Part shown: positions 9,009-54,777 of the stretch, piece by piece
Layout of the letters: every line of letters begins with the position of its first letter
Numbering within the stretch: the first letter of the stretch is position 1
NCBI GenBank assembly: GCA_963811705.1
Contig: CAWESL010000007.1
Coordinates: forward strand, 218,100-282,099
Direction of reading: 5' to 3'
Source of the DNA: Ignavibacteriota bacterium
Lineage (GTDB): Bacteria; Bacteroidota; Ignavibacteria; UBA10030; UBA6906
Length of the DNA stretch: 64,000 nucleotides
Notes under the pieces: generated by a model
Told to the model about the DNA's origin: nothing
Database searches by the model: none
What the model saw: the letters and a program-made list of their open reading frames with translations, nothing else
Program-made: the position numbers and the translations under genes

Positions 9009-10508
9009 ATGAAGCGCATTGTTCTATTGTTCTGTCTCGCGTTTGTCGCCGCCTCAGCCGCCCTGGCGACAAACGGTGTGAAAATGATTGGGTTCAGCGC
9101 GAAGACCGTTGGCATCGGCGGCGCATCCATCGGTACTTTTGATGGTACGGTTCTTATGATGACGAACCCGGCCGGCCTCGGCTTCATCGATGGCTCTGCC
9201 CTCGATGCGAATTTTTCGTTGATGATCCCTTCGCTGAAGTTCACCAATGTTTCGAACGGCGAGACAAACGGGAAGACGAACTATTTCCCGCTTCCCGGGC
9301 TCGCCTATGCCCACGCGAGTGCGGACAACCCGTTTGCCTGGGGAGTCGGCGCGTTCACGCAGGGAGGGATGGGAGCGGATTTCTCGCTCATCAACCCCCT
9401 CTTCCGGGACCAGACCGGCACCCTCACGCCGCAGGAGTATCATTCTCAACTTGCCGTCATGGAAGGTGGACTGAGCGCGGCCTATCGGTTGACCGACAAC
9501 TTTTCCATCGGCGTGTCGGCCCACCTTGTCTACAGTACCCTCGAATTCACCATGCCCTACAGTCTCTCTCCGTCGATCATGAAGGGGATTGCCCAGCCGG
9601 GGATGACGTTCGGACAGATGTTTGCCGCACCGCCGGCCCAGGGCGGCTTTGGCTACACGGAAGTCACCGCACTTGCGGCGATGACGGATCTGACCGCAAT
9701 CGGCTTTTGCGGCAAGATCGGCGTCGCGTACAAGGTCAGCGACCGGTTTACCATCGGGGCCAGCTACACGTCCGCATCCCCGCTGACCTACAAGAACGGC
9801 AAGGCGACGATGGATATGACCGCCCAGTTGACCGACGCGTTCGGGAAGGCCGTTCAAGGCTACATGGCTTCGAACCCTTCCGCAACTGCGGTCCAGGCGC
9901 AACAAGCCGTTGCCGGGCAGTTCGGTCAAATGGGAATCGATCTGACCAAGGGTGCAGTCGCCAACTACAACCTGCAGACCACACTGACACTCCCCCAGTC
10001 AATCGGGATCGGTGCATCATATTCCGCGACCGATCAACTCCGGTTTGCACTCGATGTCGAATGGGTCAACTGGAGTGCGGCATTCGACAAGATGGGGATC
10101 TCGCTTTCCAACGGCTCGAATGCCAATATCAACACGATGCTGGGAAACAGCGGCGCGTTCTCTCTTGATTTTCCGATGAACTGGAAGGACGCCGTCAATG
10201 TCCGGTTGGGTGCGGAGTATGCGCTCGTACCGGCCGTGCTCGTCCGCGCAGGGTACGCCTACGGAAAGAACCCCGTTCCTCCGTCAACCATTTTCCCTGT
10301 GTTCCCCGCCATCGTCGAAAACCATGCAATGGTCGGCGCTTCATGGAATATCACCAGCATCATCGGTCTCCATGTGGCGTACGAAATCGCGCTCAACAAC
10401 AAGGAGACGGCAAGTACGCCGAGCACAGTCGCCCAGGAGTACAACGGATCCGTGAGCCAACTCCTCGAAAATATCTTCCACGCCTCCATTTCCTGGAGCC
10501 TCAAGTAG
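9009..10508 (+). CDS. FadL/OmpP1/TodX-family outer-membrane hydrophobic-compound transporter
   Basis: Signal peptide, then NGVKMIGFSAKTVGIGGASIG...NPAGLGF resembling the FadL/Toluene_X N-terminal hatch region. 499 aa, alternating beta-strand pattern. Confidence 0.6.
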   Translation: MKRIVLLFCLAFVAASAALATNGVKMIGFSAKTVGIGGASIGTFDGTVLMMTNPAGLGFIDGSALDANFSLMIPSLKFTNVSNGETNGKTNYFPLPGLAYAHASADNPFAWGVGAFTQGGMGADFSLINPLFRDQTGTLTPQEYHSQLAVMEGGLSAAYRLTDNFSIGVSAHLVYSTLEFTMPYSLSPSIMKGIAQPGMTFGQMFAAPPAQGGFGYTEVTALAAMTDLTAIGFCGKIGVAYKVSDRFTIGASYTSASPLTYKNGKATMDMTAQLTDAFGKAVQGYMASNPSATAVQAQQAVAGQFGQMGIDLTKGAVANYNLQTTLTLPQSIGIGASYSATDQLRFALDVEWVNWSAAFDKMGISLSNGSNANINTMLGNSGAFSLDFPMNWKDAVNVRLGAEYALVPAVLVRAGYAYGKNPVPPSTIFPVFPAIVENHAMVGASWNITSIIGLHVAYEIALNNKETASTPSTVAQEYNGSVSQLLENIFHASISWSLK

Positions 10509-10537
10509 GAAGTCGGCAAAAGGGTTTTCACAAAAGG

Positions 10538-10580
10538 CAACGGCGATCCCGAACGAGGTCGCCGTTGTTGTTTTCGTTTA
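10538..10580. terminator. bidirectional rho-independent terminator between convergent FadL-like and lplA genes
   Basis: Hairpin caacggcga-tcccgaacgagg-tcgccgttg followed by ttgttttcgttt. Confidence 0.5.
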
Positions 10581-10604
10581 ATGAGGGCAGCGCCGGAGCG
10601 GGAG

Positions 10605-11690
10605 TTACAGCGCAGGAGGGACGGGGTTCACCGCAGCCAGGAATGCCCGGCCGAAATCCTCTTCCGCCAGGCCAGGCGACGTGATCGGCAAATCGCGATA
10701 GACTTCACGCACGCGGGCGACGACAGAACGATCGTCTGCATGCACACCGCGCAATGCCGTCTCAACACTGCCGAGGCCGAGTGCAGGGAGCATCGTGAAA
10801 TCGCCCGACAGGGAAATATCTTCGATGCGGTCCCCCGTGAGCCGCGCCGTCAGACGGAGAAGTCCCCCGGGAGCCTTCCATGCCCCTTCGACAATTCGTA
10901 CATCTTCATGGATCTTCACTCCCACGGGGCGCAGCCCTCCCCGCTGCAGCATCCATTCCTCCGATTGGAATCGACGATCCACTTCTACCGCCGCCGCCTC
11001 TTCCCGCTCCGTCCACACCCCCGGGAGGATTTCCGCATCAAGCACTTTCTCGCAGTTCCGAACGTAGAGACCCTTGACATCATCACGAGGAGGCGACGAG
11101 CCGAGCTGCTCGGTGATGGTGGTCATGTACTGCTCGAGACCCTCGACGATTTTGTCTCGCATTTTTTCCGACGACACCCTGAGAACCTTCGCCATCGTCT
11201 TCTTGTCGAACGTGAACATGAGACTCCCGACCACGACATCGGCGACGCCGATCTGCGCCGCCCCCGTCCCGCCGATTTTCTTTCCCCCGACATGGATATC
11301 GTTGACCGGTCGATGATAGGCATTGATCCCGAGTGCCTGGTAGGTCTCCACAAGCGGTCGGATATACACGGCGAAGCGCTCGACCAGATCCGCCGGAAGA
11401 TGTCCCGGCTGGAAGATCCATTGCGCGAAGACCTGTCCGCTATCGAGATAGACGGCGCCGCCTCCCACTTCGCGACGGTAGATGGGAAGTCCGCGCGACC
11501 GGCAGTGGTCGACATCGACTTCCTTCCGGAGATCCTGATGGTAGCCGATGCAGACGTAGGGACTGGAGGGACTGGCGAGGATGATGGTGTCCGGAGTTTC
11601 GGGGAGCATCGCATGACCGACCGCGTGGTAGACGGTCTGCGACCGGAGGGGGGAGACGTTCGTAAGATCAAGCAGCCTCACACGCTTCAC
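10605..11690 (-). CDS. lplA: lipoate-protein ligase A family protein
   Basis: 361 aa. N-terminus KRVRLLDL..., the conserved GGKKIGGTGAAQ (LplA GxKIxGsAQ-type motif) and an LplA C-terminal domain. The GTG start overlaps the hypC stop (GTGA). Confidence 0.8.
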   Translation of the reverse strand: MKRVRLLDLTNVSPLRSQTVYHAVGHAMLPETPDTIILASPSSPYVCIGYHQDLRKEVDVDHCRSRGLPIYRREVGGGAVYLDSGQVFAQWIFQPGHLPADLVERFAVYIRPLVETYQALGINAYHRPVNDIHVGGKKIGGTGAAQIGVADVVVGSLMFTFDKKTMAKVLRVSSEKMRDKIVEGLEQYMTTITEQLGSSPPRDDVKGLYVRNCEKVLDAEILPGVWTEREEAAAVEVDRRFQSEEWMLQRGGLRPVGVKIHEDVRIVEGAWKAPGGLLRLTARLTGDRIEDISLSGDFTMLPALGLGSVETALRGVHADDRSVVARVREVYRDLPITSPGLAEEDFGRAFLAAVNPVPPAL

Positions 11691-11959
11691 GGCAATGGCT
11701 CCGAGCCCGGCGGGAGGGTTTCCAGGTCGCGCAACTCATCGTTCATCTTCAGGAAGCCGAAAATCTCCGCCGCCGCTTCTTCGTCGATCTTGCTGAGCGC
11801 GAATCCGACATGGACGACCACATAGTCCCCGACCTGGACATCAGGAACGTAGGCGAGGCTCACGTCTTTGGAGATTCCGCCGAATTCCACCTTGCCGATG
11901 GTCATGCCGAGCGGATTGGTCTCGATGCGCACAACTTTGCCGGGAACACCTAGACACAT
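11687..11959 (-). CDS. hypC: [NiFe] hydrogenase maturation chaperone HypC/HupF
   Basis: N-terminal MCLGVPGKVV signature and a length of 90 aa. Confidence 0.85.
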   Translation of the reverse strand: MCLGVPGKVVRIETNPLGMTIGKVEFGGISKDVSLAYVPDVQVGDYVVVHVGFALSKIDEEAAAEIFGFLKMNDELRDLETLPPGSEPLP

Positions 11960-12002
11960 TTTCGAATTTGGCGTTTGAATTTTGGAAATGGGAATGGCTT
12001 GC

Positions 12003-12491
12003 TTACGATGTTCCTGACTCCCAGTCTTGGAGGATCCGCTTCACCCTGGCCGTCATCTCGTTCGACACGGCTTCCACCGCCGACGTCATGCCGAATCCAA
12101 CCGAGATATCCATCGGCTGTACCCCGATGAGGTGCAGATGTTCCGGCAGTTTTCCCCTGATCTGCGCAAGACCCAGAACCTCCTGAAACGTCACCTGGTG
12201 CTGGGACATTTTCACTCCTGAGAAGAGCGGGATCGCATCTCGGGAAAGCTCGACCACCGTTGCCGGCGGCTTCCCGGCATTGACCGCATCGAGGAGGAGC
12301 AGATGGCTGCACTCCTCCACGAGCGGCAGCAGATTCAGGCCGAGCGTACCGCCATCGACAAACTCGAACGACGTCCGGGATTCCATCTGCTCCCGCAGCC
12401 TGGCGAGCAGATGGACCCCGACACCTTCATCCCGGTTCAGCGTGTTGCCGAGACCGAGCACGATTTTCCTCCCTGCCGCCGGTTCGTTCAT
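12003..12491 (-). CDS. hupD: hydrogenase maturation endopeptidase (HyaD/HybD/HupD family)
   Basis: LGLGNTLNRDEGVGVHLLARL matches the GxGNxxxxDDGxG protease motif. Its ATG overlaps the hynL stop (ATGA). Confidence 0.85.
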   Translation of the reverse strand: MNEPAAGRKIVLGLGNTLNRDEGVGVHLLARLREQMESRTSFEFVDGGTLGLNLLPLVEECSHLLLLDAVNAGKPPATVVELSRDAIPLFSGVKMSQHQVTFQEVLGLAQIRGKLPEHLHLIGVQPMDISVGFGMTSAVEAVSNEMTARVKRILQDWESGTS

Positions 12492-14220
12492 TGCAGAACA
12501 ACGTTCAGCTCGGTGGAGACGTTCCCAACGTCCTTGCCTTCAGCGTCGATCATGTGGATGGCACACGCCATGCACGGATCGAAGGAATGGATGGTGCGCA
12601 AGATTTCGAGTGGCCACTCGGGTTTTTCCATTTTCGTCCCGACAAGAGAGGATTCGTAGGCGCCTTCCTGCCCCTTGTGGTCTCGCGGAGACGCGTTCAG
12701 GTCGTCGGCACGACGAGTTGGTAGTTCGCGATCTTGCCATCGTCGATGACGATCCAGTGTCCGAGCGCGCCGCGGGGTGCCTCCATGAAACCGAACCCCT
12801 CCGCGTGTGACGGCCAGGTGCCGGGATCCCACTTGTCGTTGTGAAGGTCCGAGTGTTCCCGGCCTTGATCTCGGCGATAAGCTCGCCGTAAAACTCGCGC
12901 AGCCAGTCTGCGATGACTTTGGTCTCGATCGCCCGCGCCGCCGTCCGTCCAAGCGTCGAAAACACCGCGCTGATCGGCGCATCGAGTTTCTTGAGCGTCA
13001 GCCGACAAGCTCTCGCGTTTGCTCATGGCCTTTCGCGTACAGCGCAAGGACGCGCGCGAGGGGGCCGACTTCCATCGGCGCTTCATTCCATCGCGGGGAC
13101 TTCAGCCAGGAATACTTCTGTTCGACCTCGAGGTTTTTATACGGCGATTTCGGCCCCGTGAAATTGAGTTCTGTTTCGCCGCGCCAGGGATGAAGACCGA
13201 CCTGGTCGCCACCGCTGTACTTGTACCAGCTATGGGCAATGAATTCCTTCATTTTGTCGAAATCCCGCGGATCTGGCTCGATGATGTTCGCGAGATCCTT
13301 GTTCATGATCGCGACACGGGGGAACAGGTACTTTGACGTGTCTTTCGGATCAACGCCGGGGAATTCTCCCACGTCAGGAAATTGCCGAGCTCACCGCCGA
13401 TGCCCGCGTAGTCTTTATAGTACGGGGCTATGGCGAGGATATCGGGGATGTAGACCTGATCGACGAACTCGACGATCTTGTCGATCGAATCGGCGATGAT
13501 CGCGAGGCGTTCCGCGTTCAATGCGGTGTCGCTGTTGAGATCGATCGGCATCGGGATGCCGCCCACCACGAAATTCGGGTGCGGTTCTTTCCCCCGAAGA
13601 TCGTGTGCATCTTGTCACATGCCGCTGCCAATCAAGGGCTTCGAGGTAGTGCGCGACGGCGAGCAGGTTGATCTCCGCCGGGAGCTTGTACGCCGGGTGC
13701 CCCCAGTAGGCATTCGAGAAGATCGACAGTTGCCCGCTCGTTGCGATGCCTTGCACCTTCTTCTGCACATCGGCGAAGTAGGCGGGAGAAGAATTGCCCC
13801 ACGCGGAAATCGCCTGTTGGATTTCCGAGGTCTTCTTTGGATCCGCCTTGAGCGCGGCGACGACGTCCACCCAATCGAGCGCATGGAGGTGATAGAAATG
13901 CATGACGTGATCGTGGATGTACTGTTGCGCGATCATCATGTTACGGACGATATTCGCCGCCTGGGGAATCCGGATGTCGAGGGCATCTTCGACCGACTGG
14001 ATGGACGCAAACGCGTGCACGGTGGTGCAGACCCCGCAGGCACGCTGGGTGAACGCCACGCTTCCCGCGGGTCCCGCCCTTTCAGGATGATTTCCATTCC
14101 CCGGACTATGGTGCCGGATGAATATGCCTTCGTGATGGTGTTGCTTTCATCCAGTTCGGCTTCGATCCTGAGGTGTCCCTCGATGCGGGAAATCGGATCA
14201 ACGACGATACGATGTGCCAT
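12488..14220 (-). pseudogene. hynL: [NiFe] hydrogenase large subunit (HynL/HyaB-like), interrupted by ~7-8 single-base frameshifts
   Basis: Homologous segments appear in successive frames. First [20 protein letters not shown]..., then [14 protein letters not shown] (the RxCGxC Ni-binding motif), then ...VGGIPMPIDLN..., then ...[10 protein letters not shown]..., then [13 protein letters not shown]..., then [10 protein letters not shown]...VVPTT, then NASPRD...HSFDPCMACAIHMI (the C-terminal DPCxxCxxH motif). Together they are collinear with E. coli HyaB. AGGAG lies upstream of the ATG at 14220. Confidence 0.85.
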
Positions 14221-14230
14221 ACACGTTCTC

Positions 14231-14584
14231 CTATTGGTTGCGGAGCCAGTCGAGGCCCTCGGCTTCATTCTCGAAATTGCGCACCGCGTGGGCGTAGTAA
14301 CTCTCGTCAATATCCAGTGTCCCCGGCGGCAGGATTCCCCCGATGATCGCCGCCACCGGCATCATGGGCCGGAGCTGACGAATGTGCCGCGCGCATTCCA
14401 CGACAGGAGTGCCGGTGAGATCGATGAGGAGTTTTCCCCGATAGTCCCTGAAAAACGTCGCGAGCGATTGGATGTCTTCGGGCGAAAACGTTCCACTATG
14501 CCTGCAGCGCATGATCCCTTTTTCCACTGGTGTCAGATTGAACGATGCCATGCTATCATCTCCGGGAAAAGTTCGGGCAGCCAA
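14231..14584 (-). CDS. hypothetical 117-aa protein inserted between isp2 and hynL
   Basis: ORF whose stop lies 10 nt upstream of hynL. No confident family match. It has weak receiver/STAS-like character ([21 protein letters not shown]). Confidence 0.35.
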
Positions 14585-14587
14585 AGA

Positions 14588-15846
14588 CTATTCCATTGCT
14601 TCCGCCACCATCTGCGACAGTCCCCTGACCTTGATGTCAAGATGGAAGTGTTCAACGCTGTCGGTGTACTGCAGTCTGCAATTGGAACAGGTCATCGTGA
14701 CGGTCTTCGCGCCGACGGCCTGCAGTTGCCGCATCTTCAGCTCGAACACGCCGTAGCGGTTCGCATCGGCTTCTTTGATGGCGATCACCCCTCCGCCACC
14801 GCCGCAGCAGACCGACTGCTCCTTGTTTGGCGTCATCTCCTTGAAGGCATTCGGGGCAAGGATTTGCAGGATCTCGCGGGGCTCCTGGATGTGTGATCGC
14901 GCCGCTGGATCTTGCACGCGTCGTGAAACGTGAGAACGCCGTCCCCGTCGAACGCCCCCTTCTTCAGGGTGAGTCTCCCCGCCTTGATGTAGTCCATGGT
15001 AACACCGACGATGTGAACAATCTCCAGGCCTTCGGGGACTTTCATCATGTTCGCCGCGGTCCACCGGAGGGCGTCGTAGGCATGTCCACATTCCGTGACC
15101 AGCAGCCGCTTCACGCCGAGATCCTTTGCCGCGTCAAAGAGCCGCTGCATGAACAATATGGTCCGCTCGTTGCTTCCTTCAAAGAACCCGAAATTCACCA
15201 CCTCGCGACCGGCGCTGCTGACAGTCCATTTCTCCCCGGCCTTGGTGAGGATCTTCGCAATCGCGGCGATGGTCTCGGGGAACTTCATGATCTCGATGGA
15301 GGTGAACACCACGAGCGTGTCGGAACTCTTGACGTCCGTCGGAATTTCGACCTCCCACTCGTCGGCGATCCACTCCATGCGCTGTTCCCACACCGACTGG
15401 GTGGCGCCGAGCGGACTGCCCTCCTCGACCTGCTTCTTGACCGCTGCCATCAGGTCGGCCGGGACAACCCCGGCATTGGACATCGCTGTCCGCACATCGT
15501 GGATCATTGGACTGAGCTGGATCCCCATCGGACAGACCATCGCGCATTTATTGCAGAGCGTGCACGCTTCATACACGATGGTGCTCCAGTGCGCGATGTC
15601 CTCATCGGTTATTTTCTTATCCATCCCGAGTGCGAGCTTCGCCCGTCCGCCAAGGGTACAACGCTGCTCGTACGCCCGGCGGAGAAGCTCCACTTTCCAC
15701 ACCGGTGCAAACTCCGGGTTATTCATCGCTTCGTAAAAGTGACACGCCTCGGCGCAGATGCCGCACCGAGTGCACGCTTCGAGCTGCGAGGCCAACCATC
15801 CGCCGGTCTCCTCGATGAACGTCGTGAGGGCTTGTTCGGTTGCCAT
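14588..15846 (-). pseudogene. isp2: Isp2: HdrD/GlpC-like Fe-S protein with two CCG domains, one frameshift near 14900
   Basis: MATEQ... contains two CxxCxxCxxxC(P) ferredoxin motifs (CTRCGICAEAC, CTLCNKCAMVCP), a first CCG-type domain (ECGHAYD...TFHDACKIQRR), then a frame switch into the second CCG domain (PREILQ...CCGGGGGVIAIKEADA...CSNCRLQ). A GAGGAGG SD precedes the ATG at 15846. Confidence 0.75.
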
Positions 15847-15860
15847 GACGGGCCTCCTCG

Positions 15861-16538
15861 TTACGGTGTGACGGCGCGTTTGCCGAACTGCGCGCCGTGA
15901 ATGGTCCGGGAAAAGAAATAGAACATGAAATGCGAAATTCTGCTGAACGGAATCCAGAGCAACATGATGTCGACCGAAAGCACATGAAGCGCAAACAGCA
16001 TTTGATACGGCGAGAACAAATGATGCGCCATCAGGTACCCCGTGATCATCGGGAGAAACACCACGAGCCAATTCACGACCTCCGCGACACCGGTCAGGAG
16101 CTTCAATACCGGATCGATGAAGCGGTTGATCAGGAGGGCCGCCATGGCGATGATCGTCACTGCGGCAAGCCAGTCGATGATCGGTACCGGGATCGTCGTC
16201 CAACTGAGCCCCAGGAGACTCTTCCACACGAGCATGTGCGGCGTTCCGAGGAAGACAATCACAAATAGCCCGAGATGGAACAGGCCGCCCGCAAGGTACA
16301 TGACCGGTTTTTTCGAAAACGTGTTCTTCACCCAGGGGATAAACGGCCAGATGACAATCCCCTTGAGGTACGTGATGGCGACCCCTTTCGCCTTGCTCTC
16401 TTTGGACGGGACCCTGTCGCGACTCCATCCCAGCAGAAGGACGCGCATCAGCCGGTACGCCATTCCGCCGACGAACACGATGAGCGCCACGTTAAAGAAG
16501 GGCCCCCGTGCGAATTCAAGTGTTTCATTCCAGTTCAT
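15861..16538 (-). CDS. isp1: Isp1: NarI/DsrM-like dihaem cytochrome b membrane anchor
   Basis: 225 aa, about 5 predicted TM helices with conserved His residues (FHLGL, TPHML, AHHLF, ALHVL). It sits between hynS and isp2, as in Isp-type hydrogenase loci. Confidence 0.65.
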   Translation of the reverse strand: MNWNETLEFARGPFFNVALIVFVGGMAYRLMRVLLLGWSRDRVPSKESKAKGVAITYLKGIVIWPFIPWVKNTFSKKPVMYLAGGLFHLGLFVIVFLGTPHMLVWKSLLGLSWTTIPVPIIDWLAAVTIIAMAALLINRFIDPVLKLLTGVAEVVNWLVVFLPMITGYLMAHHLFSPYQMLFALHVLSVDIMLLWIPFSRISHFMFYFFSRTIHGAQFGKRAVTP

Positions 16539-16547
16539 GGCAGTCTC

Positions 16548-17657
16548 CTATTCAGCAGTGACATGCTTCTTGGAGGCGCGATTGCCTGCGGCCACTCCCG
16601 CGCCAACCACCGCGCCAGCGCCTGCGGCGATCCCGAGGGCGGTGAGTGTCGGCTTGCTGAGCGGCGCCGATTGACCCTGATAAAACCCTCCGCCGTCCCA
16701 GAAATTCGGCTCCGAGCAACCTAGACACGGGTGCCCCGATTGGATCGGGAACGAAAGACCGCGGTCCCATTTGATTGTCGCGCACGCATTGTACGTTGTC
16801 GGACCTTTGCAGCCGAGTTTGTAGAGACACCAGCCTTTTCGCGCTCCTTCGTCGTCGAAGGAAAGTGCGAATTTCCCGGCCTCATAGAATGGCCTGCGCA
16901 GGCAGCGGTCATGGATCGTGTTGCCGTAAAACGTCTTCGGCCGGTTAAGCTCGTCGAGCTCGGGAAGCGTCCCGAACACCAGGAACTGGGCGAGCGTGCC
17001 GGTAAAGACTTCAGGAATCGCGGGACAGCCCGGAATATTCACCACGGGTTTGTCGGTGATGATCTCCGCGATCCCTTTCGCTTCGGTGGGATTGGGCTTC
17101 GCCTTCGGAATCCCGCCAAAGGTCGCGCAATTTCCCGTCGCAACGATCGCCAACGCACCGGCCGCCGCTTCTTTGAGCAGGTCGTTGGCCGACCGGCCGC
17201 CGATCGTGCAATAATCACCGTTGATGCCGAGAGGCACGGAACCTTCTACCACGAGGACATACTTCCCTGCGTACTTCTTCATTGTCTCCATCTTGTTCTC
17301 TTCGAGCTGAAATCCCGAAGCAGCCGAAAGCGTCTCGTGGTACTCAATGGAGATCTTGTTCAGGACGAGATCAATCAGTGTGGGCGATTGTGAGCGCGTG
17401 AGCGCTTCGCTGCATCCTGCACAGTCCTGAAATTCAAGCCAGATGACGGGCACCCGTGGCCGCGACGCAAGCGCTTTTCCCACCACGTCCGCGCCGGTGC
17501 CGTTGGACGCGAGAACAGACTCCGGGAAACCGCTCGCCTTCCACGGGGGAAAAGAATTCAACCCCATCGCTCCTGCCAGGAGACCGCACAGCTTCACAAA
17601 ATCCCGGCGCGTCACGCCTTCACGCCGGAGATGCTGATAGATTGTCTCTTCAGACAT
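16548..17657 (-). CDS. hynS: [NiFe] hydrogenase small subunit with Tat signal and C-terminal membrane anchor
   Basis: RRDFVK Tat motif, PVIWLEFQDCAGCSE and the proximal, medial and distal Fe-S cluster Cys ligands. C-terminal hydrophobic anchor. GGAGG SD upstream. Confidence 0.9.
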   Translation of the reverse strand: MSEETIYQHLRREGVTRRDFVKLCGLLAGAMGLNSFPPWKASGFPESVLASNGTGADVVGKALASRPRVPVIWLEFQDCAGCSEALTRSQSPTLIDLVLNKISIEYHETLSAASGFQLEENKMETMKKYAGKYVLVVEGSVPLGINGDYCTIGGRSANDLLKEAAAGALAIVATGNCATFGGIPKAKPNPTEAKGIAEIITDKPVVNIPGCPAIPEVFTGTLAQFLVFGTLPELDELNRPKTFYGNTIHDRCLRRPFYEAGKFALSFDDEGARKGWCLYKLGCKGPTTYNACATIKWDRGLSFPIQSGHPCLGCSEPNFWDGGGFYQGQSAPLSKPTLTALGIAAGAGAVVGAGVAAGNRASKKHVTAE

Positions 17658-17675
17658 GTGTTCCTCCGCAAGGAT

Positions 17676-18122
17676 TCACTGACATGAGATGCCGTCGGCT
17701 TCGAGCTTGGCCTGATACTTTGCAATGCCTTCGGGTCCGGTGACAAGGGTGCCTTTTTCACCATCCCAATCATTGGCCTTCATCTCCGCGATCCACCCTT
17801 CACCGTAAGGATCGGCGATCGCGATATTCGGATCCTGCGCCAGCTTCTCGTTTGCGCGCTGCAGAATGCCGGTGACCGGCGCCGGCACAGGCCCGACGAA
17901 CTTGCTGCTCTCCACGGTCGCGACACTCTTCCCTTGTTTGACCTCCTGGCCGATGTTTTTCGCCTTTACGGTGATCGCCGCGAGCTTCCCGCCGGACAGC
18001 TTCGCCGCGACTGAGGTCATGCCGATGCGAATGATCCCTCCGTCCATCGGTTTCGCCCAAACGTGCTTCTCGATATTATAGAAGAGATCGTCGGGCAGAT
18101 GACAGCCACGAATCGTCGCCAT
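17676..18122 (-). CDS. GcvH-like lipoyl-carrier protein (stand-alone, LbpA-like)
   Basis: 148 aa collinear with E. coli GcvH: EKHVWAKP..., a lipoyl-lysine motif VESSKFVGPVPAPVTG and DPYGEGWIAEMK near the C-terminus. No gcvT or gcvP nearby. Confidence 0.8.
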   Translation of the reverse strand: MATIRGCHLPDDLFYNIEKHVWAKPMDGGIIRIGMTSVAAKLSGGKLAAITVKAKNIGQEVKQGKSVATVESSKFVGPVPAPVTGILQRANEKLAQDPNIAIADPYGEGWIAEMKANDWDGEKGTLVTGPEGIAKYQAKLEADGISCQ

Positions 18123-18137
18123 GGTTCGTTTTTCTCC

Positions 18138-18527
18138 TTAGAAGGTCAGTGTCGTTTTGGCTTCTTCGGACATTTGCCACATCGCTGCACCGCCCACCAT
18201 CTTTATTCCATCAAGCAAATCGGATGGTTGGAGGTCGTGCAGTTCCGTCGAGGCGGTGCAAGCGGTAAACTTCACCCCTGCGTCCATGGCGTCCTTGAGA
18301 AAGTCCGACACCGGCTTGCCGCCGGCCTTCGGATAGACGGTTTCCGCCATTCCCTTCTTCAGGAGCAGCGTTCCGTCGATGGTAAAGAACATGGTGACGT
18401 CATATTCCATGGCCGCTGCAAGCGTGGCGAAAAAGAACGGCGTCGCACACCGCCGGGGTGTGTCGGGACCGCTGGTCATAATAATGAGAATCTTGTCATC
18501 CATGATAACAGTCCTCGAAGAGCACAT
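18138..18527 (-). CDS. DsrE/DsrF-like sulfur-relay family protein
   Basis: About 120-129 aa (a likely start at MDDKILIIM near 18503), YchN/DsrE fold pattern and a conserved Cys in GVKFTACTAS. Confidence 0.6.
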   Translation of the reverse strand: MCSSRTVIMDDKILIIMTSGPDTPRRCATPFFFATLAAAMEYDVTMFFTIDGTLLLKKGMAETVYPKAGGKPVSDFLKDAMDAGVKFTACTASTELHDLQPSDLLDGIKMVGGAAMWQMSEEAKTTLTF

Positions 18528-18608
18528 CAGGAATTTGAGTGGAATGGAAAGAACGGAACCGCGGGAGAAGAGTCAAAGAGCGTTCAGCGAAATCGAACAG
18601 CGTTGCGT

Positions 18609-19085
18609 TCAGAACGTCAGCGTGATGGCATTCCTGCTGGCAAACTCCAGGAATGTCGCGGCTCCGCCGATCTGGAGACCGTCCATGAGTTCTTCCTTCT
18701 TGATGCCCATGACGTCCATGGTCATCTGACAGGCAATCAGTTTGACGCCGGATTCCACGGCGATGTCCAGCAGCTCGCTCAGCTTGGCCACCTTGGCTTT
18801 CGACATCCAGCTGTTCATCATCATGGTGGCCGCCGCGGTCATGCCGGGGAGCATTCCGATGATGTTCGGCATCGGGACCGGCATCGCGGGGTTTCCGATC
18901 GGGGCGACTTTCAGATGGTCGGCTTTTCCCTTCTTGATGATTTCGAGTCCGTAAAACGTGAAGAAGATCGCCGCCTCCATCTCCATCGCCGCGGCAGCCG
19001 TGGCGAGAATAAGCGGCGGGTACGCCGCGTCAAGAGAGCCGTGCGAGGCAATGATTGCAATGCGTTTGCTTGATTCTTCAGGCAT
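18609..19085 (-). CDS. DsrE/DsrF-like sulfur-relay family protein (longer, DsrE3-like)
   Basis: 158 aa: RIAIIASHGSLD...FFTFYGLEIIKKG...GVKLIACQMTMDVMG. Conserved active-site-type Cys. Confidence 0.65.
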   Translation of the reverse strand: MPEESSKRIAIIASHGSLDAAYPPLILATAAAAMEMEAAIFFTFYGLEIIKKGKADHLKVAPIGNPAMPVPMPNIIGMLPGMTAAATMMMNSWMSKAKVAKLSELLDIAVESGVKLIACQMTMDVMGIKKEELMDGLQIGGAATFLEFASRNAITLTF

Positions 19086-19108
19086 GGGGTTGTTCTCCGG
19101 CAGAAATC

Positions 19109-19345
19109 TTATTTGGTCTTCTTGATGTAGAACGTAAACGTCCCACTGTTTTCTTCATGACTCAGCAACTGGTGTCCGGTCTTTTGCGTCCACGCCGTGA
19201 CATCCGGCACCGAGCCGGCATCGGTGGCGATCATCTTGAGGACCTGACCGACCTGAAGGCTGTCGACCGCCTTCTTCGTCTTCAAAATCGGCATCGGACA
19301 TGCCAGGCCGGTGCAATCGAGCGTCTGATCTGCATTCGTGGCCAT
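19109..19345 (-). CDS. tusA: TusA-like sulfurtransferase
   Basis: 78 aa with LDCTGLACPMPILKTKKA (CPxP motif). Confidence 0.8.
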   Translation of the reverse strand: MATNADQTLDCTGLACPMPILKTKKAVDSLQVGQVLKMIATDAGSVPDVTAWTQKTGHQLLSHEENSGTFTFYIKKTK

Positions 19346-19370
19346 GATCTGCTCCTGAGGAGTGATTGAT

Positions 19371-20117
19371 TCATTCGTTGGGTAAGGTACTCATGTGCGC
19401 GATGGAGCGGAGACGATTGATTAACTCGGCCCGCTCGTGCGCAACCTGTTCAAACGTCATCGCGACCTTTTCGAGCCAGAGGCCGAGCTGGTCCTCGTAA
19501 CGGCGATCGATACGGCGGATGTGTTTGGCGGCCGTGTGGAGATCGTCCGCAGGGATGTCGTGCATTGCGGCCAGCTTCTCAATCCGGGCGCTCTCTTCCT
19601 CGGGATCGGGGGCGTCATCATAGAATTGGCCTGCGATAACCATCGCAACAGGAGCTCCGTTGAGTTCAATCCGGGAGCGCGCGTATTGCAGGCCGGCATG
19701 ACAGGTCACAAATTTCGGGACCTTCTCCGATTGTTGCGCAAGCTTCTCCCACGACCCGAGACATGCCTTTTTGCCGGATGGGCTTTTGAGGATCAGCGAG
19801 CAAAAATCACACGAGTTACTGATCTCGGTAAGCGGTTCCCCCGTCGGCGATGTGGTCAGGGAGCCCACCTGGGCAATCTCGGCAAACACTTGTTGAATCG
19901 GAAGAACACAATGGATGGGAAGTGGGTCACTTGGCAAGGTTTCAAGGTCAGGGCGAACCGCGCCTCCGACGAGCGCGTCTACTTCGTCCTTCGAAAACCT
20001 CCATTGCCCTCCCACCCTGACACCGGTAATGCGGCCGTCCTTCAACATCCTGTAGATCGTCGTTCGATCAATCTTCAGAAGTCCCTGCAGTTCCTTCGTC
20101 GTAAGAAGGTTGGCCAC
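19371..20117 (-). CDS. HTH (excisionase/MerR-like) DNA-binding regulator with C-terminal Cys-containing sensory domain (PocR-like)
   Basis: The N-terminal LTTKELQGLLKIDRTTIYRMLKDGRITGVRVGGQWRF is an excisionase-family HTH. The C-terminal ~170 aa contain conserved Cys and His (CDFCSLIL...CLGSW...CHAGL). First gene of the sulfur-carrier/hydrogenase array. Confidence 0.5.
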   Translation of the reverse strand: MANLLTTKELQGLLKIDRTTIYRMLKDGRITGVRVGGQWRFSKDEVDALVGGAVRPDLETLPSDPLPIHCVLPIQQVFAEIAQVGSLTTSPTGEPLTEISNSCDFCSLILKSPSGKKACLGSWEKLAQQSEKVPKFVTCHAGLQYARSRIELNGAPVAMVIAGQFYDDAPDPEEESARIEKLAAMHDIPADDLHTAAKHIRRIDRRYEDQLGLWLEKVAMTFEQVAHERAELINRLRSIAHMSTLPNE

Positions 20118-20129
20118 AATCCGTCCAGA

Positions 20130-20185
20130 TCTGTTACGTTGCTATAGTTTGCTACAACTTGCCATAGCATATTATTGAAATTGAT
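20130..20185. promoter_or_regulatory. imperfect triple direct repeat TTGCTATAG / TTGCTACAAC / TTGCCATAGC immediately upstream of the HTH regulator
   Basis: gttacgttgctatagtttgctacaacttgccatagcatatt lies in the 235-bp intergenic region upstream of the regulator start at 20117. Confidence 0.3.
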
Positions 20186-20352
20186 CGGAATTGTCAAGAA
20201 AAATCTTTTCCATGGTTTGCTTGTTCGGGCAATTTTTGGGAGCCAGGACTATCAGGGAGGGGGGCGCCGAGCTTCAAGAAAAGAGCGATTAGGGAAGCAG
20301 GATTCGCGCTTGGCGCGACTTGGAGGGGTGGGAATCTGTAAAGACGGAGATG

Positions 20353-20973: not shown

Positions 20974-21057
20974 CGACGCCTCTCGGTGATGATTCAGGTA
21001 TTTATGAGATGCACTGCATGAACTGAACGGGTCTCTCGATCGATGCCAACGGCCCGC

Positions 21058-22320: not shown

Positions 22321-22348
22321 TCCCCGACCCGATTTTGCCGAAGGCATA

Positions 22349-23349: not shown

Positions 23350-23403
23350 TGGTCGTGTTTCCGCCTCCGTGACACCGTTGGATGGTTTGCGATTGCACAC
23401 CCG

Positions 23404-24837: not shown

Positions 24838-24840
24838 GGG

Positions 24841-50888: not shown

Positions 50889-52778
50889 TTAGTTTGAGAC
50901 GAATGTCGTAATGCTCGACGGGTCGAGCGTAGCCTGGAAGCTTCCGTGGACAGTCGGGATGTCGGTTCCCCGGGTGCAGTTTTTCGCGATCGACGTTGTA
51001 TAAGACGAAAACGACGCCGCGGGCCCGTTTGCCATGACAAAGCCTTGTTGGATCGGCGACGACCCGGTGTTTATCGCGACGATGACAATCTTCGAAGTGG
51101 TGCCGTCTCGGTATGCCGAGATCCAGACATTCCGCTGGGGAGTGGCGAAGCAGCCGATCCTCGTATATCCCGGGCGTACGAACTTCGCGAATTGCGACAT
51201 AACATAACCGCGCTTGGTCACGGTCCCGTCCTCGGCGATCGGTCCATAGTACCTCACGATGTACCACCAGACGTACGCATTCATGCCGGCGTTCAGGCAA
51301 TCATGGATTTCCTTCCCGGTTGCGAGGACCGCCGACCAGCTCGTGTCAAGCACCAGATGTTCCGTCATCCAGAAGTCTTTTCCTTTGCTGACGGCAAGAG
51401 GATACGGACCGAGCCCTCCGCCGTAGATATGTCCGGCGATGATGGATAAATTCGCTGCTGCCGCAGAATCATTCAGCGTCGGGTCAGACAATGCGTGGAC
51501 GAAATTCTGGGATTCCGGCATCATCACCCTGGTCCCGATGGACCCGGCATTATTCTTGGTGAACTTCAGGAACTGCGCGCCATTCCAACTGCACGACTCG
51601 TACGTGACGTTGGCGTCCGGTTCATTCTGCAGCGATACGGCATACAAGGGCACGCCATTCCCTGCCATGTAGTCGGCGAAGTTCCTGAGGTGCGCGGCAT
51701 AGGATGCGTAGGACGAATCGTTGAGCACCCCCGCAACGATACTGTCACTGCTTTTCATCGCCGGCGGAGGGGTCCACGGCGTCGCGAAAACAATGGCGCC
51801 GAGCGATTGCGCAAGCGTCGCCGTCGGCAGGTTTGCACTGAACTCGCTCACGTTATCCGTGAAGGGGATCCGCAGGCGAAGGATCGTCAGCCCGATCTGA
51901 CCGGGCCCTGTCCCGAATGCCGTTTGAACCTGGGCGGAGGTCATGTCGGGCCGCCAGGGCAGAATATTCGCTCCTCCAAATCCCCGGATCGTCTGGAGCA
52001 CGCTGTCCAGCACCACTCGCGAAGTCGGTATCGCGACCTGTGCATTCACAACGAAGTCCAATGTGGTATCGCTTTCGACGACAACATTGTCAAATTCGGC
52101 GGGAAGCACATTTGGCGAAGTTCCGACCGCCGTGTCTATGCGCACGGAGAATGCCGTCGCTGACACTGTCCGCAGGATTCCTGGGGCCGTGTTTGGTGCC
52201 GGCAACCCAAGGGGGATTTGCAGCGAGGGGACACCGCCGTTTCCTTCGCCGAAGACCATCTTCCTTGTCTGCATTTCGTTCCCTGCCTGCAGACTATAGA
52301 AATAGACACCGGCAGCCACCCGGTGCCCGCTGCCATTGTTGCCGTCCCAAAGAACGCTATGCGTGCCCGGTGACTGGGTCCCGGAACGCATTGAACGTAT
52401 CACCCTCCCGAGAATGTCATAGATCGTGACTTTGATATCCTCTTGCGTCTTGAGCTTGTATGGGATGGCCGTCGACGTCATAAACGGGTTCGGATAGTTC
52501 TGCTCGAGTTCAAATTTGGCCGGCAGAGTATTGGCAGGCATAACGGAAGTGAGGGAGAGTTGCATCTGGTATTTTCCCGTCGAGTCCGTACGCACAGAAG
52601 TAGCGTTCGTCGGATTCGCGGTCTGCGCAAAGGTGATAGAGGCATTTCGCACTGGTGCAGTCGACGTCGTCACGCTGCCTTCCACGACGACAGTCTGGGC
52701 GGAGACGATGGCGGGAGGCAGTGCCAGGCCAAGGCAAAGGGCCATGAGGATCAGGCGGCCGAAGGAAAGCTTTGTCAT
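50889..52778 (-). CDS. GH30 (subfamily-8-like glucuronoxylanase) fused downstream of an N-terminal Ig-like domain and an internal T9SS-CTD-like domain
   Basis: Signal peptide, then a CarbopepD_reg-like beta-sandwich, then a CTD-like block (KFELEQNYPNPFMTSTAIPYKL...VTIYDILGRVIRSM...GVYFYSLQAGNEMQTRKMVF), then GH30 motifs GFGGANI, SLQNEPD and WMTEH. Single continuous ORF. Confidence 0.6.
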   Translation of the reverse strand: MTKLSFGRLILMALCLGLALPPAIVSAQTVVVEGSVTTSTAPVRNASITFAQTANPTNATSVRTDSTGKYQMQLSLTSVMPANTLPAKFELEQNYPNPFMTSTAIPYKLKTQEDIKVTIYDILGRVIRSMRSGTQSPGTHSVLWDGNNGSGHRVAAGVYFYSLQAGNEMQTRKMVFGEGNGGVPSLQIPLGLPAPNTAPGILRTVSATAFSVRIDTAVGTSPNVLPAEFDNVVVESDTTLDFVVNAQVAIPTSRVVLDSVLQTIRGFGGANILPWRPDMTSAQVQTAFGTGPGQIGLTILRLRIPFTDNVSEFSANLPTATLAQSLGAIVFATPWTPPPAMKSSDSIVAGVLNDSSYASYAAHLRNFADYMAGNGVPLYAVSLQNEPDANVTYESCSWNGAQFLKFTKNNAGSIGTRVMMPESQNFVHALSDPTLNDSAAAANLSIIAGHIYGGGLGPYPLAVSKGKDFWMTEHLVLDTSWSAVLATGKEIHDCLNAGMNAYVWWYIVRYYGPIAEDGTVTKRGYVMSQFAKFVRPGYTRIGCFATPQRNVWISAYRDGTTSKIVIVAINTGSSPIQQGFVMANGPAASFSSYTTSIAKNCTRGTDIPTVHGSFQATLDPSSITTFVSN

Positions 52779-52959
52779 CTGGTTGCAGTCGCCGCTGAAC
52801 AGGCAGGATTCATGGCGGGGAGTCATGTTCACAATGTCCTTTGCGCATCTCCAATGGTTTTTCAATTCCCCTGTTTCAATGATGCCATGGGGCAGAACTT
52901 TTCGATTTGGTTTCTGAGATGACGAGGGTGGGATGGGGAATGCCTCCTCCGCACTCGCC

Positions 52960-54648
52960 TTATTTGTATGTATAGAGTCGCACCTTTTGAATGCCGAACG
53001 TGCTCCCGGGAAGATTGAGATGTCTTCCCTGATGGTCTTCATCGCCGTTCAAGCGACGTCCCGCACTCCATCTTCCGTTTATGATGTTCCCTTCCTCGAT
53101 GCTCTCGATCCCTGCGGTTGAGCCGTCAGCGGAAGAGGGCCTGAACGTGACCACCACGCCGCTTCCCGCAACATAGTACTCGTTGCTTCCCGTCATGATA
53201 ATCAGCCCGCCGTATCGGGGGACGCTCCCTTCGACCCTCGCCGCATAAGGCCAGGAGTATTCGTGTTTCACCGTAAAGGTGAACTTCCCGAGAGTGATTT
53301 CCTCCGTCTGGGCAGCGCTGTCGAGGAGAAACCCGGCCATTGTCCCCGTGCCCTGGTGCTCGAGGATCAGCGGCGTGAGGGAGCGCAGAATACCGTATGC
53401 GCGGCCGATATGTCGGACCAGGACGCTGTCCGCTGATTCGATGGAGAATGGATCGTACCCCATGGCATTGTGCGCGCCAAAAGCGAAGAAGGCATTGGTA
53501 AGACTCTGATGGCGGTCCACCTCGGGGACAAAGACGGCGTTCCCGTCACGATCATATTTCCCCAGCCATTCGGCAAAGCTCGGGAAATAGATGTCGGGAG
53601 CAAGAAAGTCGATACGCGGTGCAGCCGCTCGCCACACGTCCATCAGGTGAGGAAGCGGACCGGCACTGGGATATTGCCCGGGTCTGTAATTGGGACGAAT
53701 CAGGGCGGCGTTGACATACATCGGGAGCGGGTATTCTGCTTTTCCCGCTGCCGCGACAGAATCTGTATAGACGGCAAAGCTCCACGCCATGAAAATTTCG
53801 TCAGTCGCCAGCCCGGTACCGAAGACCTGTTCCCACGTCCCCGTCGTCTTCATCCCCTGACTGGCCCAGGCCTTTCCTACTGCTTCATTCATCGCACTCT
53901 TGTTGTTTTGAAGATCGGCCAGGAGCTGTTGCGGAACCGGTTGCCCGAACGCGTGTTCGGCCTCCACACAATAGTCACGTGCCTGGGGAATCATCCCGAT
54001 TTCGTTCTCCACCTGGACCATGATGACGGTATTTTGCACCGCATCGACGGCGCGGAGATGCTTCATCAAAGCGGAGAACGCCCTTGCATCGGCATTCCTG
54101 TTTGCGGCGCTGAAGGGGGTGAGAATCTCCAGTGCGCGCCCTTCCTTCGTCCGCGCACGCGGAAACCGCTCCTGGTTGGTTTTCACCCAGGATGGAGCGT
54201 AGCAGGACATGCTGTTTTTCCACGAACCAAACCAGAGGACGACGATCTTCAAGTCGTAGTGCCGGGCGGACGCGATCAGCTTGTCCAGGAGCGCGAAGTC
54301 AAATCTGCCCTCCCGCGGCTCGATGAGCTCCCAGTACACGGGCATCAGGATGGTGTTGAGGTTCATCGCCCTGAGCTTCGGCCACATCGGTTCGATGTAC
54401 TTCGTATCCGACGCGCTCGAATTTCCAAGCTCGCCGCCGATGATGAGATAAGGCTTGTTATGGACGATCAGCTGGGTCGCCGTTCCTTGCTTCTGCAAAT
54501 GAGGGAGTGCGAGCGAAGATTGTGCCAGAGCGGACGAAACCGAGAGCGCAACCGCCAGGAACGCCGCAATGCCGATCCGGCCTGCGTGCAAACCCGGGGG
54601 CACCCTTCCCCATCCGAGGACTCTCCGGAAGATTCTCATCGCGGGCAT
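52960..54648 (-). CDS. GH-A clan glycoside hydrolase, GH35/GH42-like with DUF5597-type C-terminal domain
   Basis: N-terminal TIM-barrel region NTILMPVYWELIEPREGRFDF...VQVENEIG resembling GH35/42. Start chosen at an internal Met with signal peptide. Confidence 0.45.
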   Translation of the reverse strand: MPAMRIFRRVLGWGRVPPGLHAGRIGIAAFLAVALSVSSALAQSSLALPHLQKQGTATQLIVHNKPYLIIGGELGNSSASDTKYIEPMWPKLRAMNLNTILMPVYWELIEPREGRFDFALLDKLIASARHYDLKIVVLWFGSWKNSMSCYAPSWVKTNQERFPRARTKEGRALEILTPFSAANRNADARAFSALMKHLRAVDAVQNTVIMVQVENEIGMIPQARDYCVEAEHAFGQPVPQQLLADLQNNKSAMNEAVGKAWASQGMKTTGTWEQVFGTGLATDEIFMAWSFAVYTDSVAAAGKAEYPLPMYVNAALIRPNYRPGQYPSAGPLPHLMDVWRAAAPRIDFLAPDIYFPSFAEWLGKYDRDGNAVFVPEVDRHQSLTNAFFAFGAHNAMGYDPFSIESADSVLVRHIGRAYGILRSLTPLILEHQGTGTMAGFLLDSAAQTEEITLGKFTFTVKHEYSWPYAARVEGSVPRYGGLIIMTGSNEYYVAGSGVVVTFRPSSADGSTAGIESIEEGNIINGRWSAGRRLNGDEDHQGRHLNLPGSTFGIQKVRLYTYK

Positions 54649-54777
54649 TGTCCCTCCGGGGAGACCGATTTCTTGAGAGTTGTGATCCGGTTGTGCCACA
54701 CCGTTCTTTCGGGAGACAGGAATAAAAATGCGGCCCGCCCAGAGTGGCAGACGGGCCGCATTTCTCGGGTTACGAGA

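Follow-up and report, generated by a model that had tools for sequence, protein, structure and literature searches.

A lipoate:protein ligase gene in a conserved [NiFe]-hydrogenase cluster that also encodes an LbpA-like lipoyl protein

Introduction

Why should a lipoate:protein ligase gene stand at the end of a [NiFe]-hydrogenase gene cluster? The question is raised by a 64,000-nucleotide (nt) stretch of an Ignavibacteriota genome (GenBank assembly GCA_963811705.1, contig CAWESL010000007.1, positions 218,100 to 282,099 of the forward strand), which is referred to here as the window and whose numbering is used throughout. Within it, the ligase gene lplA and the gene for a hydrogenase maturation protease are each joined to the preceding gene by overlapping stop and start codons, and a first-pass annotation of the sequence took these overlaps as an argument that the ligase is co-translated with the hydrogenase maturation factors. 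For lipoate-binding proteins of the LbpA type and their dedicated ligases, the literature to date speaks of an association with the sHdr complex of sulfur oxidation that is found "inevitably" (PMC6067878). A recent genome paper treats the link between Isp-type hydrogenases and sulfur metabolism as not yet confirmed (PMC10892978). A comparison with related loci, which are cited by their locus numbers in the comparison set (L001, L004 and so on), shows that lplA is not a chance neighbour, as the first-pass annotation had argued, since the ligase lies in the same cluster in most of them. The simplest reading is that its functional tie is to the gene for an LbpA-like protein near the 5' end of the operon, and not to the maturation genes that it abuts.

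Results

A hydrogenase cluster that keeps a lipoate ligase

Two samples of related loci were compared with the window. The first was chosen through lplA and comprised 80 loci from species-representative genomes, whereas the second was chosen through the GcvH-like protein of the cluster, blind to lplA, and comprised 59 metagenome loci and four from exact-protein look-ups. In the first sample, the ligase family occurs in two contexts: in tandem-lbpA type II sHdr clusters, or at the end of the hydrogenase cluster. The sHdr context is seen in L004, where Pfam analysis indicates an HdrA-like flavoprotein, a CCG/Fer4 protein, EtfB, EtfA, a CCG/Fer4 protein of 675 amino acids (aa), two LbpA proteins and LplA, an arrangement that matches the type II sHdr layout of PMC11094781. 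The hydrogenase cluster with the ligase was found in metagenome-assembled genomes (MAGs) labelled Ignavibacteriota, which include the closest relative, L001, as well as Chloroflexota (several orders) and Acidobacteriota. Every sufficiently long locus in the second sample has the same gene order, and a ligase is part of the cluster in 20 of the 22 informative loci, or 16 of 18 after de-duplication. L082-L085, for which Prodigal-style gene calls were available, encode PocR, TusA, two DsrE proteins, GCV_H, HynS, Isp1, Isp2, HynL, HycI and LplA in this order. The genes on either side of these clusters differ, and the cassette therefore moves as a unit.

The exact position of the ligase gene is variable. 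It usually lies 3' of the protease gene, separated from it by -4 to 30 nt, but is found between hynL and the protease gene in L090 and L109, and upstream of pocR in L027, L028 and L134. The chaperone gene hypC separates the protease gene from lplA only in the window, in L001 and in L081, an independent 11.7-kb contig (ENA ERZ25039489) that was found via the LbpA-like protein and is 99.6% identical to the window. This position of hypC is thus lineage-specific, and the maturation factors are not borne out as the partner of the ligase. The slot itself is occupied by two ligase lineages, which are 36% and about 60-70% identical to the ligase of the window. For example, the LbpA, HynL and ligase proteins of L083 are 77%, 74% and 36% identical to those of the window, respectively, while the corresponding values for L113 are 77%, 77% and 65%. 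That the ligase has been replaced while its slot was retained strongly indicates selection for a ligase in the operon. An additional LplA-like gene follows an extra gcvH-like gene in L117. Collectively, comparative genomics provides strong evidence for the predicted membership of lplA in this cluster.

Several relatives carry insertions within the cluster. An SQR-like FAD flavoprotein is encoded between hynL and the protease gene in L108 (7588-9057) and L111 (16515-17984), and a SLAC1/TehA-type channel occupies the same place in L125 (15326-16498) and L131 (7083-8270). Between isp2 and hynL, L126 (10938-15987) carries a gene for a formate-dehydrogenase-like molybdoenzyme along with FdhE- and FdhD-like genes, and the insert found at this site in L135 is similar in size. 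These three kinds of insert point to sulfur chemistry. A repeat-rich insertion, with translations that are repetitive in several frames, lies between the protease gene and lplA in L059 (8382-9660) and L111 (18560-19039); by eye, the L059 insertion encodes a putative REP-associated tyrosine transposase.

The ligase and its predicted acceptor

The ligase of the window combines a Pfam LplA-B_cat domain (PF21948, 6.4e-36, residues 31-207) with an NCBIfam LplB match over residues 269-353. It also matches NCBIfam LplA_large and the solved structures 1VQZ and 3R07 chains A and C, the last of these over residues 270-350. At 111 bits, it falls well short of the 280 bits that NCBIfam requires of a canonical LplA, and it is 58-67% identical to ligases of Chloroflexota type II sHdr clusters, whose genes immediately follow the tandem lbpA genes. 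An exact-sequence look-up of the protein gave no match.

The operon also encodes a 148-aa protein with a GcvH fold that has the features of an LbpA. Its lipoyl lysine is found in the motif VESSKFVGP, and the lysine of ESSK is invariant in 57 unique homologues, in which Cys7 (56 of 57) and Cys147 (57 of 57) are also present. Two such cysteines, one near each terminus and absent from GcvH, are the hallmark of LbpA proteins (PMC6067878). The protein falls below both NCBIfam cut-offs for GcvH (91.6 versus 117 bits and 65.8 versus 115.85 bits), and the hydrogenase-linked proteins cluster apart from LbpA1 and LbpA2 of the sHdr type. Its gene is not adjacent to an sHdrABC-type cluster: the neighbours are hynS, isp1, isp2 and hynL, and only the HdrD-like Isp2 is related to Hdr proteins. 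Owing to the lack of an shdr neighbourhood, it is classed here as LbpA-like, in a new subfamily linked to hydrogenase. The subfamily is abundant: a search at E <= 1e-20 gave 1211 proteins, and identity to the protein of the window is 75% or more in each of the best 120 clusters. In many Chloroflexota type II sHdr loci (e.g. L004 9070-9972), LbpA ends in C(F/L)RC(V/I/A)(D/E/G), with two cysteines, while members of the hydrogenase-linked subfamily have a single penultimate cysteine.

LbpA proteins are modified not by the canonical lipoylation machineries but by LplA-like ligases encoded in or near their gene clusters (PMC6067878). By analogy with the sHdr-LbpA systems, the simplest reading is that the sLpl(AB)-type ligase would serve the LbpA-like protein of its own operon, which would need a dedicated ligase. 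The ligase gene would then be in the operon because the operon encodes its own lipoyl protein.

A predicted Isp-type hydrogenase and a possible route to sulfur

The order hynS-isp1-isp2-hynL, the membrane protein Isp1 and the HdrD-like Isp2 are consistent with an Isp-type hydrogenase (HydDB group 1e), as is the closest solved structure to HynL, 3MYR_B (800 bits, with the next match at 679 bits), which we take to be the Allochromatium vinosum enzyme. HynS features a twin-arginine signal, read in the sequence as TRRDFVK, and a hydrophobic C-terminal anchor, while no signal peptides were seen by eye in TusA, the DsrE proteins or LbpA. Isp1 is taken to be a cytochrome b by analogy with Thiocapsa Isp1 (PMC10892978).

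In the mechanism that we propose, HynSL would oxidise H2 on the periplasmic side and the electrons would cross the membrane via Isp1 to the cytoplasmic, HdrD/DsrK-like Isp2. As a protein of the disulfide/trisulfide reductase type, Isp2 would then reduce either the lipoamide disulfide of LbpA or sulfane sulfur carried on LbpA, which would be loaded by TusA and DsrE and would play a DsrC-like role. The net reaction would be H2 + S(0) -> H2S, with release of H2S and conservation of energy by a proton-motive redox loop. The scheme fits three published statements: HydDB assigns Isp-type enzymes to sulfur respiration, the Thiocapsa enzyme has no known major role other than H2-dependent sulfur reduction (PMC10892978), and TusA/DsrE networks feed an LbpA-dependent CCG-protein complex in sHdr systems (PMC11094781). 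It is possible, though somewhat less likely than not, that in this widespread subgroup the cytoplasmic partner of Isp2 is lipoylated LbpA, loaded with sulfane sulfur by TusA and DsrE; the cluster would thereby encode a lipoate-dependent, energy-conserving H2:sulfur oxidoreductase in which LbpA serves Isp2 as DsrC serves DsrMK.

LbpA could instead be a pure two-electron carrier, whereby HynSL, Isp1 and Isp2 would pass electrons from H2 on to lipoamide, NADH would be generated by a dihydrolipoyl dehydrogenase whose gene lies elsewhere, and TusA and DsrE would have a sensing or side function. The transfer from H2 to lipoamide would be exergonic, with standard potentials of approximately -414 mV and -290 mV, respectively, and Isp2 is a member of the HdrD/DsrK family, whose enzymes reduce disulfides. 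PMC6067878 also discusses how the cofactor could be reoxidised with reduction of NAD+. We nevertheless regard this as unlikely, as the cluster conserves tusA and the two dsrE genes no less than lbpA itself, the SQR-like flavoproteins and SLAC1/TehA-type channels inserted in some relatives suggest sulfur chemistry, and no lpdA gene was found in the window or in the inspected flanks.

An oxidative direction, in which sulfane sulfur delivered by TusA and DsrE would be oxidised on LbpA/Isp2 and the electrons would leave via Isp1 to quinone, or via HynSL as H2, is quite improbable. TusA, DsrE, LbpA and Lpl(AB) do constitute the accessory set of the sulfur-oxidising sHdr systems (PMC11094781), and Isp-type enzymes are physiologically reversible according to HydDB. 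However, the cluster encodes no catalytic subunits of the sHdrA/B/C type, Isp2 resembles reductive or bidirectional DsrK/HdrD enzymes, and the production of H2 from sulfane oxidation would be thermodynamically unfavourable without extra input.

Stop and start codons at the two overlapping junctions

All genes of the array are on the minus strand. The plus-strand tetranucleotide TCAT at 12488-12491 therefore reads ATGA, in which the protease start codon (ATG, 12491-12489) overlaps the hynL stop codon (TGA, 12490-12488), and TCAC at 11687-11690 reads GTGA, in which the lplA start codon (GTG, 11690-11688) overlaps the hypC stop codon (TGA, 11689-11687). Both overlaps, as described in the first-pass annotation, were present when the sequence was read again, and both are identical in L081, for which no difference from the window is listed between 12509 and 11450. 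The Shine-Dalgarno motifs claimed upstream of hynS (GGAGG), the gcvH-like gene and hynL (AGGAG in both cases) and isp2 (GAGGAGG) were likewise found. In addition, a GGAG motif lies 8 nt 5' of the GTG start of lplA, whereas no Shine-Dalgarno motif was found upstream of the protease gene or hypC and, for the protease gene, no GGAG-like motif occurs within 30 nt 5' of the start. From pocR to lplA, the intergenic distances are 25, 23, 105, 15, 18, 9, 14, 36, 10, -4, 43 and -4 nt. An earlier range of 10-25 nt is thus roughly right, although larger gaps exist, such as those of 105 and 43 nt.

The GTG at 11690 had been proposed as the lplA start, and this assignment is confirmed by an alignment of the N-termini of 15 orthologues with the upstream in-frame translation. 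All 15 begin at the same aligned position, 12 with ATG and three with GTG, and share the N-terminus M-x-x-(I/V)-R-L-L-D-L, while the sequence 5' of this position is unconserved and contains stop codons in several loci. A second GTG, at codon 4, corresponds to a conserved Val/Ile position. The first in-frame ATG is codon 28, and a start at this codon would remove 27 conserved residues, including the block RLLDL...RSQTVYHA; a downstream ATG is therefore ruled out as the real start by the alignment. Because hypC and lplA overlap, an intergenic terminator between them is impossible.

Both overlaps are ordinary rather than rare. No gene overlap is commoner in bacteria than one of 4 nt, and the open reading frame (ORF) list of the window contains two further possible examples, with putative starts, between unrelated genes (33602-33605 and 41529-41532). 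The ATGA of the hynL-protease junction is also found in L001, L042 and L028, and a 4-nt overlap was computed at this junction in five further loci; apart from L081, the GTGA of the hypC-lplA junction recurs only in L001. Because such overlaps are common and the junction before lplA is not conserved, with gaps of 1-30 nt in other relatives, the overlaps alone are weak evidence, and the absence of conservation outside close relatives means that translational coupling is not essential to the system. As lplA has its own GGAG, its translation needs no coupling, and the GTGA junction is an example of compact operon packing at which coupling is optional. In contrast, translation of the protease gene probably depends on the termination of HynL translation, by termination-reinitiation at an ATGA that lacks a ribosome-binding site. 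In comparison with ATGA-type translational coupling, the 4-nt overlap and a downstream protease gene without a Shine-Dalgarno motif are shared features, and nothing is unusual.

The overlaps therefore do not prove the lplA link. The description of lplA as co-translated with the maturation factors is correct with respect to operon membership, but co-transcribed, and possibly translationally coupled, would be the better wording. It might still be argued that lplA is a housekeeping lipoate ligase that lies beside a hydrogenase by chance and overlaps hypC through the usual compaction, since 4-nt overlaps are common, lplA has its own GGAG and the overlap is unconserved in most relatives, but this is highly improbable given a ligase in nearly all informative loci sampled via another gene across several phyla with differing flanks, two diverged ligase lineages in the same slot, an LbpA-type acceptor encoded in the operon and a score so far below the canonical LplA cut-off.

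Frame breaks in hynL and isp2

As assembled, hynL is split over three reading frames by seven 1-nt deletions (near 14057, 13613, 13584, 13366, 13000, 12842 and 12698), and isp2 has one such deletion near 14900. These were mapped by alignment with intact orthologues from short-read MAGs. Insertion of an N at each site yielded stop-free products of 579 aa for HynL and 419 aa for Isp2. The stop codon at 12488, which ends the last hynL fragment, is the true hynL stop once the frame is restored.

In the independent contig L081, five of the seven hynL deletions and the isp2 deletion are absent, but there are other 1-nt deletions that the window lacks, three of them within lplA. The two sites that L081 does not settle lie in G4 and C3 runs. 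Since L081 is intact at six of the eight sites and is broken at others, the eight deletions are consensus errors of a long-read-style assembly and not pseudogenisation. That the hydrogenase is a decaying pseudogene whose junctions no longer have a function, as the seven hynL frameshifts, the one in isp2 and the far longer unbroken ORFs elsewhere in the window might suggest, is scarcely credible: all eight events are 1-nt deletions whose filling restores both products, the hynL fragments are 92-93% identical to the L001 orthologue, on a par with the neighbouring genes, and hynL of L001, which to go by its contig name may come from another long-read assembly, is also frameshifted but at another place in the gene. 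The MAG should therefore not be scored as lacking a functional hydrogenase.

Base substitutions were also observed in this region. When 12510-16399 is compared with L081, 13 of the 23 mismatches are an A in the window against a G in L081, in an NGG context, and at the three sites checked (14107, 13998 and 13391) the orthologues side with L081. The window consensus seems to contain systematic G-to-A errors in 12510-16399 as well.

Extent of the operon and remaining features of the window

The cluster consists of 13 co-directional genes in the order pocR-tusA-dsrE_a-dsrE_b-lbpA-hynS-isp1-isp2-106-aa ORF-hynL-protease-hypC-lplA (Table 1). The first-pass annotation had missed tusA, the 106-aa ORF and the frame breaks in hynL and isp2.

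Table 1. Predicted genes of the hydrogenase cluster and the hairpin that follows it
Feature	Position	Strand	Product	Evidence and remarks
pocR	19371..20117	-	PocR-type regulator; first gene of the cluster	HTH_17 (PF12728) and PocR sensory domain (PF10114)
tusA	19109..19345	-	Sulfur-carrier protein, 78 aa	CPxP motif LACPMP; between regulator and dsrE_a
dsrE_a	18609..19085	-	DsrE2/DsrE3-like sulfurtransferase, 158 aa	Pfam DrsE_2 1.8e-49; NCBIfam DsrE2 174.6 bits (below cut-off of 210)
dsrE_b	18138..18503	-	DsrE-family protein, 121 aa	Pfam DsrE and DrsE_2
lbpA	17676..18122	-	LbpA-type lipoate-binding protein, 148 aa	GcvH fold; Pfam GCV_H 1.9e-26
hynS	16548..17657	-	[NiFe]-hydrogenase small subunit	Pfam Oxidored_q6 and NiFe_hyd_SSU_C
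isp1	15861..16538	-	Membrane subunit related to TmcC/HmcE	NCBIfam TmcC 2.4e-37 and HmcE 4e-32, both below cut-offs
isp2	14588..15846	-	HdrD/DsrK-like iron-sulfur protein	Two ferredoxin motifs and CCG domain; NCBIfam TmcB, DsrK and HmcF ~1e-60
106-aa ORF	14231..14551	-	Conserved protein	Two conserved cysteines; C-terminal WLRNQ; directly upstream of hynL
hynL	12488..14220	-	[NiFe]-hydrogenase large subunit, restored product 579 aa	Frame-broken as assembled
protease	12003..12491	-	HyaD/HybD-type maturation endopeptidase, 162 aa	Pfam HycI 4e-26; NCBIfam hydrog_prot 130 bits (cut-off 47)
hypC	11687..11959	-	Hydrogenase large-subunit chaperone, 90 aa	Pfam HupF_HypC; TIGR00074 80.9 bits (cut-off 48)
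lplA	10605..11690	-	Lpl(AB)-type lipoate:protein ligase, 361 aa; last gene of the operon	LplA catalytic domain fused to LplB-like C-terminal domain
Hairpin	10536..10569		13 pairs, GC-rich	T-runs on both sides; between convergent lplA and FadL-like genes

Both tusA and a pocR-type regulator gene upstream of it are conserved in nearly all related loci. TusA scores 60.8 bits with NCBIfam, below the cut-off of 78, and PF01206 is assigned to it in the gene calls of L081 and L082-L085. The start of dsrE_b was set at the ATG of MDDKILII, following the L001 orthologue and the L081 gene call. The 106-aa ORF has no match in Pfam or NCBIfam, but orthologues with 54-84% identity were found in 16 loci, always just 5' of hynL, and the ORF is present in roughly half of the related clusters. 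A single-sequence AlphaFold2 model of this protein was of insufficient quality (pLDDT 53, pTM 0.35) to serve as a query for similar folds.

The hairpin at 10536-10569 is likely to be a bidirectional terminator, judging from its sequence. It was the only convincing candidate in a terminator scan that gave 20 hits against 10.4 expected, mostly stems of 5-8 pairs within coding sequence. In the same scan, no strong terminator-like hairpin was found inside the array on the operon strand, only short, weak stems, and Rfam gave no match in 9500-21000. A scan for sigma-70 consensus promoters, the one promoter type covered, was at background (four found against 3.8 expected), and no promoter was therefore assigned.

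The remaining genes of the window are unrelated to the hydrogenase operon. They include a hydroxyproline-catabolism-like set on the minus strand at 21058-25776 (a DAO flavoprotein, a proline racemase family protein, an aldehyde dehydrogenase and a DHDPS-like protein), a minus-strand xylan-degradation cluster at 38018-60411 that encodes GH10, GH43, GH115 and GH8 proteins, a glucuronyl esterase and type IX secretion system (T9SS) sorting domains, and a PAS kinase identified by Pfam. From its hydroxyproline and xylan gene sets, the host looks like a heterotroph of the Ignavibacteriota/Bacteroidota group, and together with the best relative, L001, the gene content suggests that it is Ignavibacteriota-like. 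Pfam annotation found no hyp genes in the rest of the window beyond the cluster. In the minus-strand ORF 50889..53042, a T9SS sorting domain is situated mid-protein (residues 183-263), and this ORF overlaps the end of a GH35/42-like ORF (52960..54699) that has no such tail itself; the overlap within 50889-54699 may be another assembly frameshift.

Discussion

We consider it likely that positions 10605-20117 form a single operon of 13 genes, a judgement that was made jointly with the whole explanation, in which the predicted ligase would modify the LbpA of its own operon and H2 oxidation would be linked to sulfur by the mechanism proposed above. A number of points weigh against this explanation. 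The stop/start overlaps are not conserved beyond close relatives, and internal promoters could lie in the 105 nt that precede dsrE_b or the 43 nt that precede hypC. In L120 and L130, the two exceptions among the informative loci, hyp genes lie 3' of the protease gene and no ligase gene is found there. The electron path from Isp2 to LbpA is one that we infer from gene association and analogy, even the sHdr systems offer no agreed role for LbpA, and no lipS1/lipS2 or lpdA genes were found in the 64-kb window (Pfam) or in the inspected flanks of relatives.

A full-text literature search, which mostly did not extend to subscription journals, found nothing that links LbpA, GcvH-like proteins or lipoate ligase to Isp-type hydrogenases, and the key LbpA papers name a hydrogenase only in a reference title. 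We therefore found no description of the combination of hydrogenase, LbpA, ligase and sulfur carriers, although both parts are known separately and the overlaps are ordinary. If LbpA is indeed the partner of Isp2, this would be the first LbpA system that is not tied to sHdr, and the cassette names candidate substrates for Isp2. Given its presence in several phyla and at least 120 LbpA-like clusters, it may be relevant to how H2 and sulfur are cycled in sediments, wetlands, groundwater and sludge.

Four known systems invite comparison. The GcvH-L/LplA2 operons of Staphylococcus and Streptococcus (PMC4518038; PMC12440151) also pair a GcvH-like carrier with a dedicated ligase outside glycine cleavage, but they encode a sirtuin and a macrodomain protein, function in oxidative-stress defence and feature no hydrogenase or sulfur transferases. 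The resemblance to DsrMK(JOP)-DsrC lies in Isp1 and Isp2, which, like DsrM and DsrK, pair a membrane cytochrome b with a cytoplasmic CCG protein, and in lipoyl-LbpA either the dithiol arm or the C-terminal cysteine could by analogy act as a DsrC-like substrate. However, the cluster lacks DsrC and DsrAB, and its electron donor would be a hydrogenase rather than the quinol pool.

The Isp-type HynS-Isp1-Isp2-HynL hydrogenases of Thiocapsa and Allochromatium (PMC10892978; PMC5037454; PDB 3MYR) share with the window the gene order, a small subunit with a twin-arginine translocation (Tat) signal, a membrane Isp1, an HdrD-like Isp2, a proposed link to sulfur reduction and the closest structure to HynL, 3MYR_B. 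The descriptions consulted name no tusA, dsrE, lbpA or lplA among the genes of these operons, whereas in the present cluster all four are conserved, and an endopeptidase and a ligase close the operon.

The sHdr-LbpA clusters, which encode sLpl(AB), TusA and DsrE3-type proteins (Cao et al. 2018, PMC6067878; Tanabe et al. 2023, PMC10332631; Tanabe et al. 2024, PMC11094781), have in common with the window an LbpA with a lipoyl lysine and N- and C-terminal cysteines, an in-cluster Lpl(AB)-type ligase, TusA/DsrE-family carriers and a CCG-domain (HdrB/HdrD-like) iron-sulfur protein. In contrast to these clusters, the window operon features one lbpA gene rather than two and has no lipS1/lipS2 nearby, and its LbpA falls into its own sequence cluster, with the motif ESSKFVGPVP in place of the ESGKWVGP of the sHdr type. 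It also lacks sHdrA, sHdrB1/B2, sHdrC1/C2 and EtfAB/EMO, in place of which it encodes a predicted membrane-bound, periplasm-facing [NiFe] hydrogenase with Isp1 and Isp2. The cassette thus swaps sHdr for HynS-Isp1-Isp2-HynL while keeping TusA, DsrE, LbpA and the ligase, and thereby joins the topics of LbpA-dependent sulfur metabolism and Isp-type hydrogenases.

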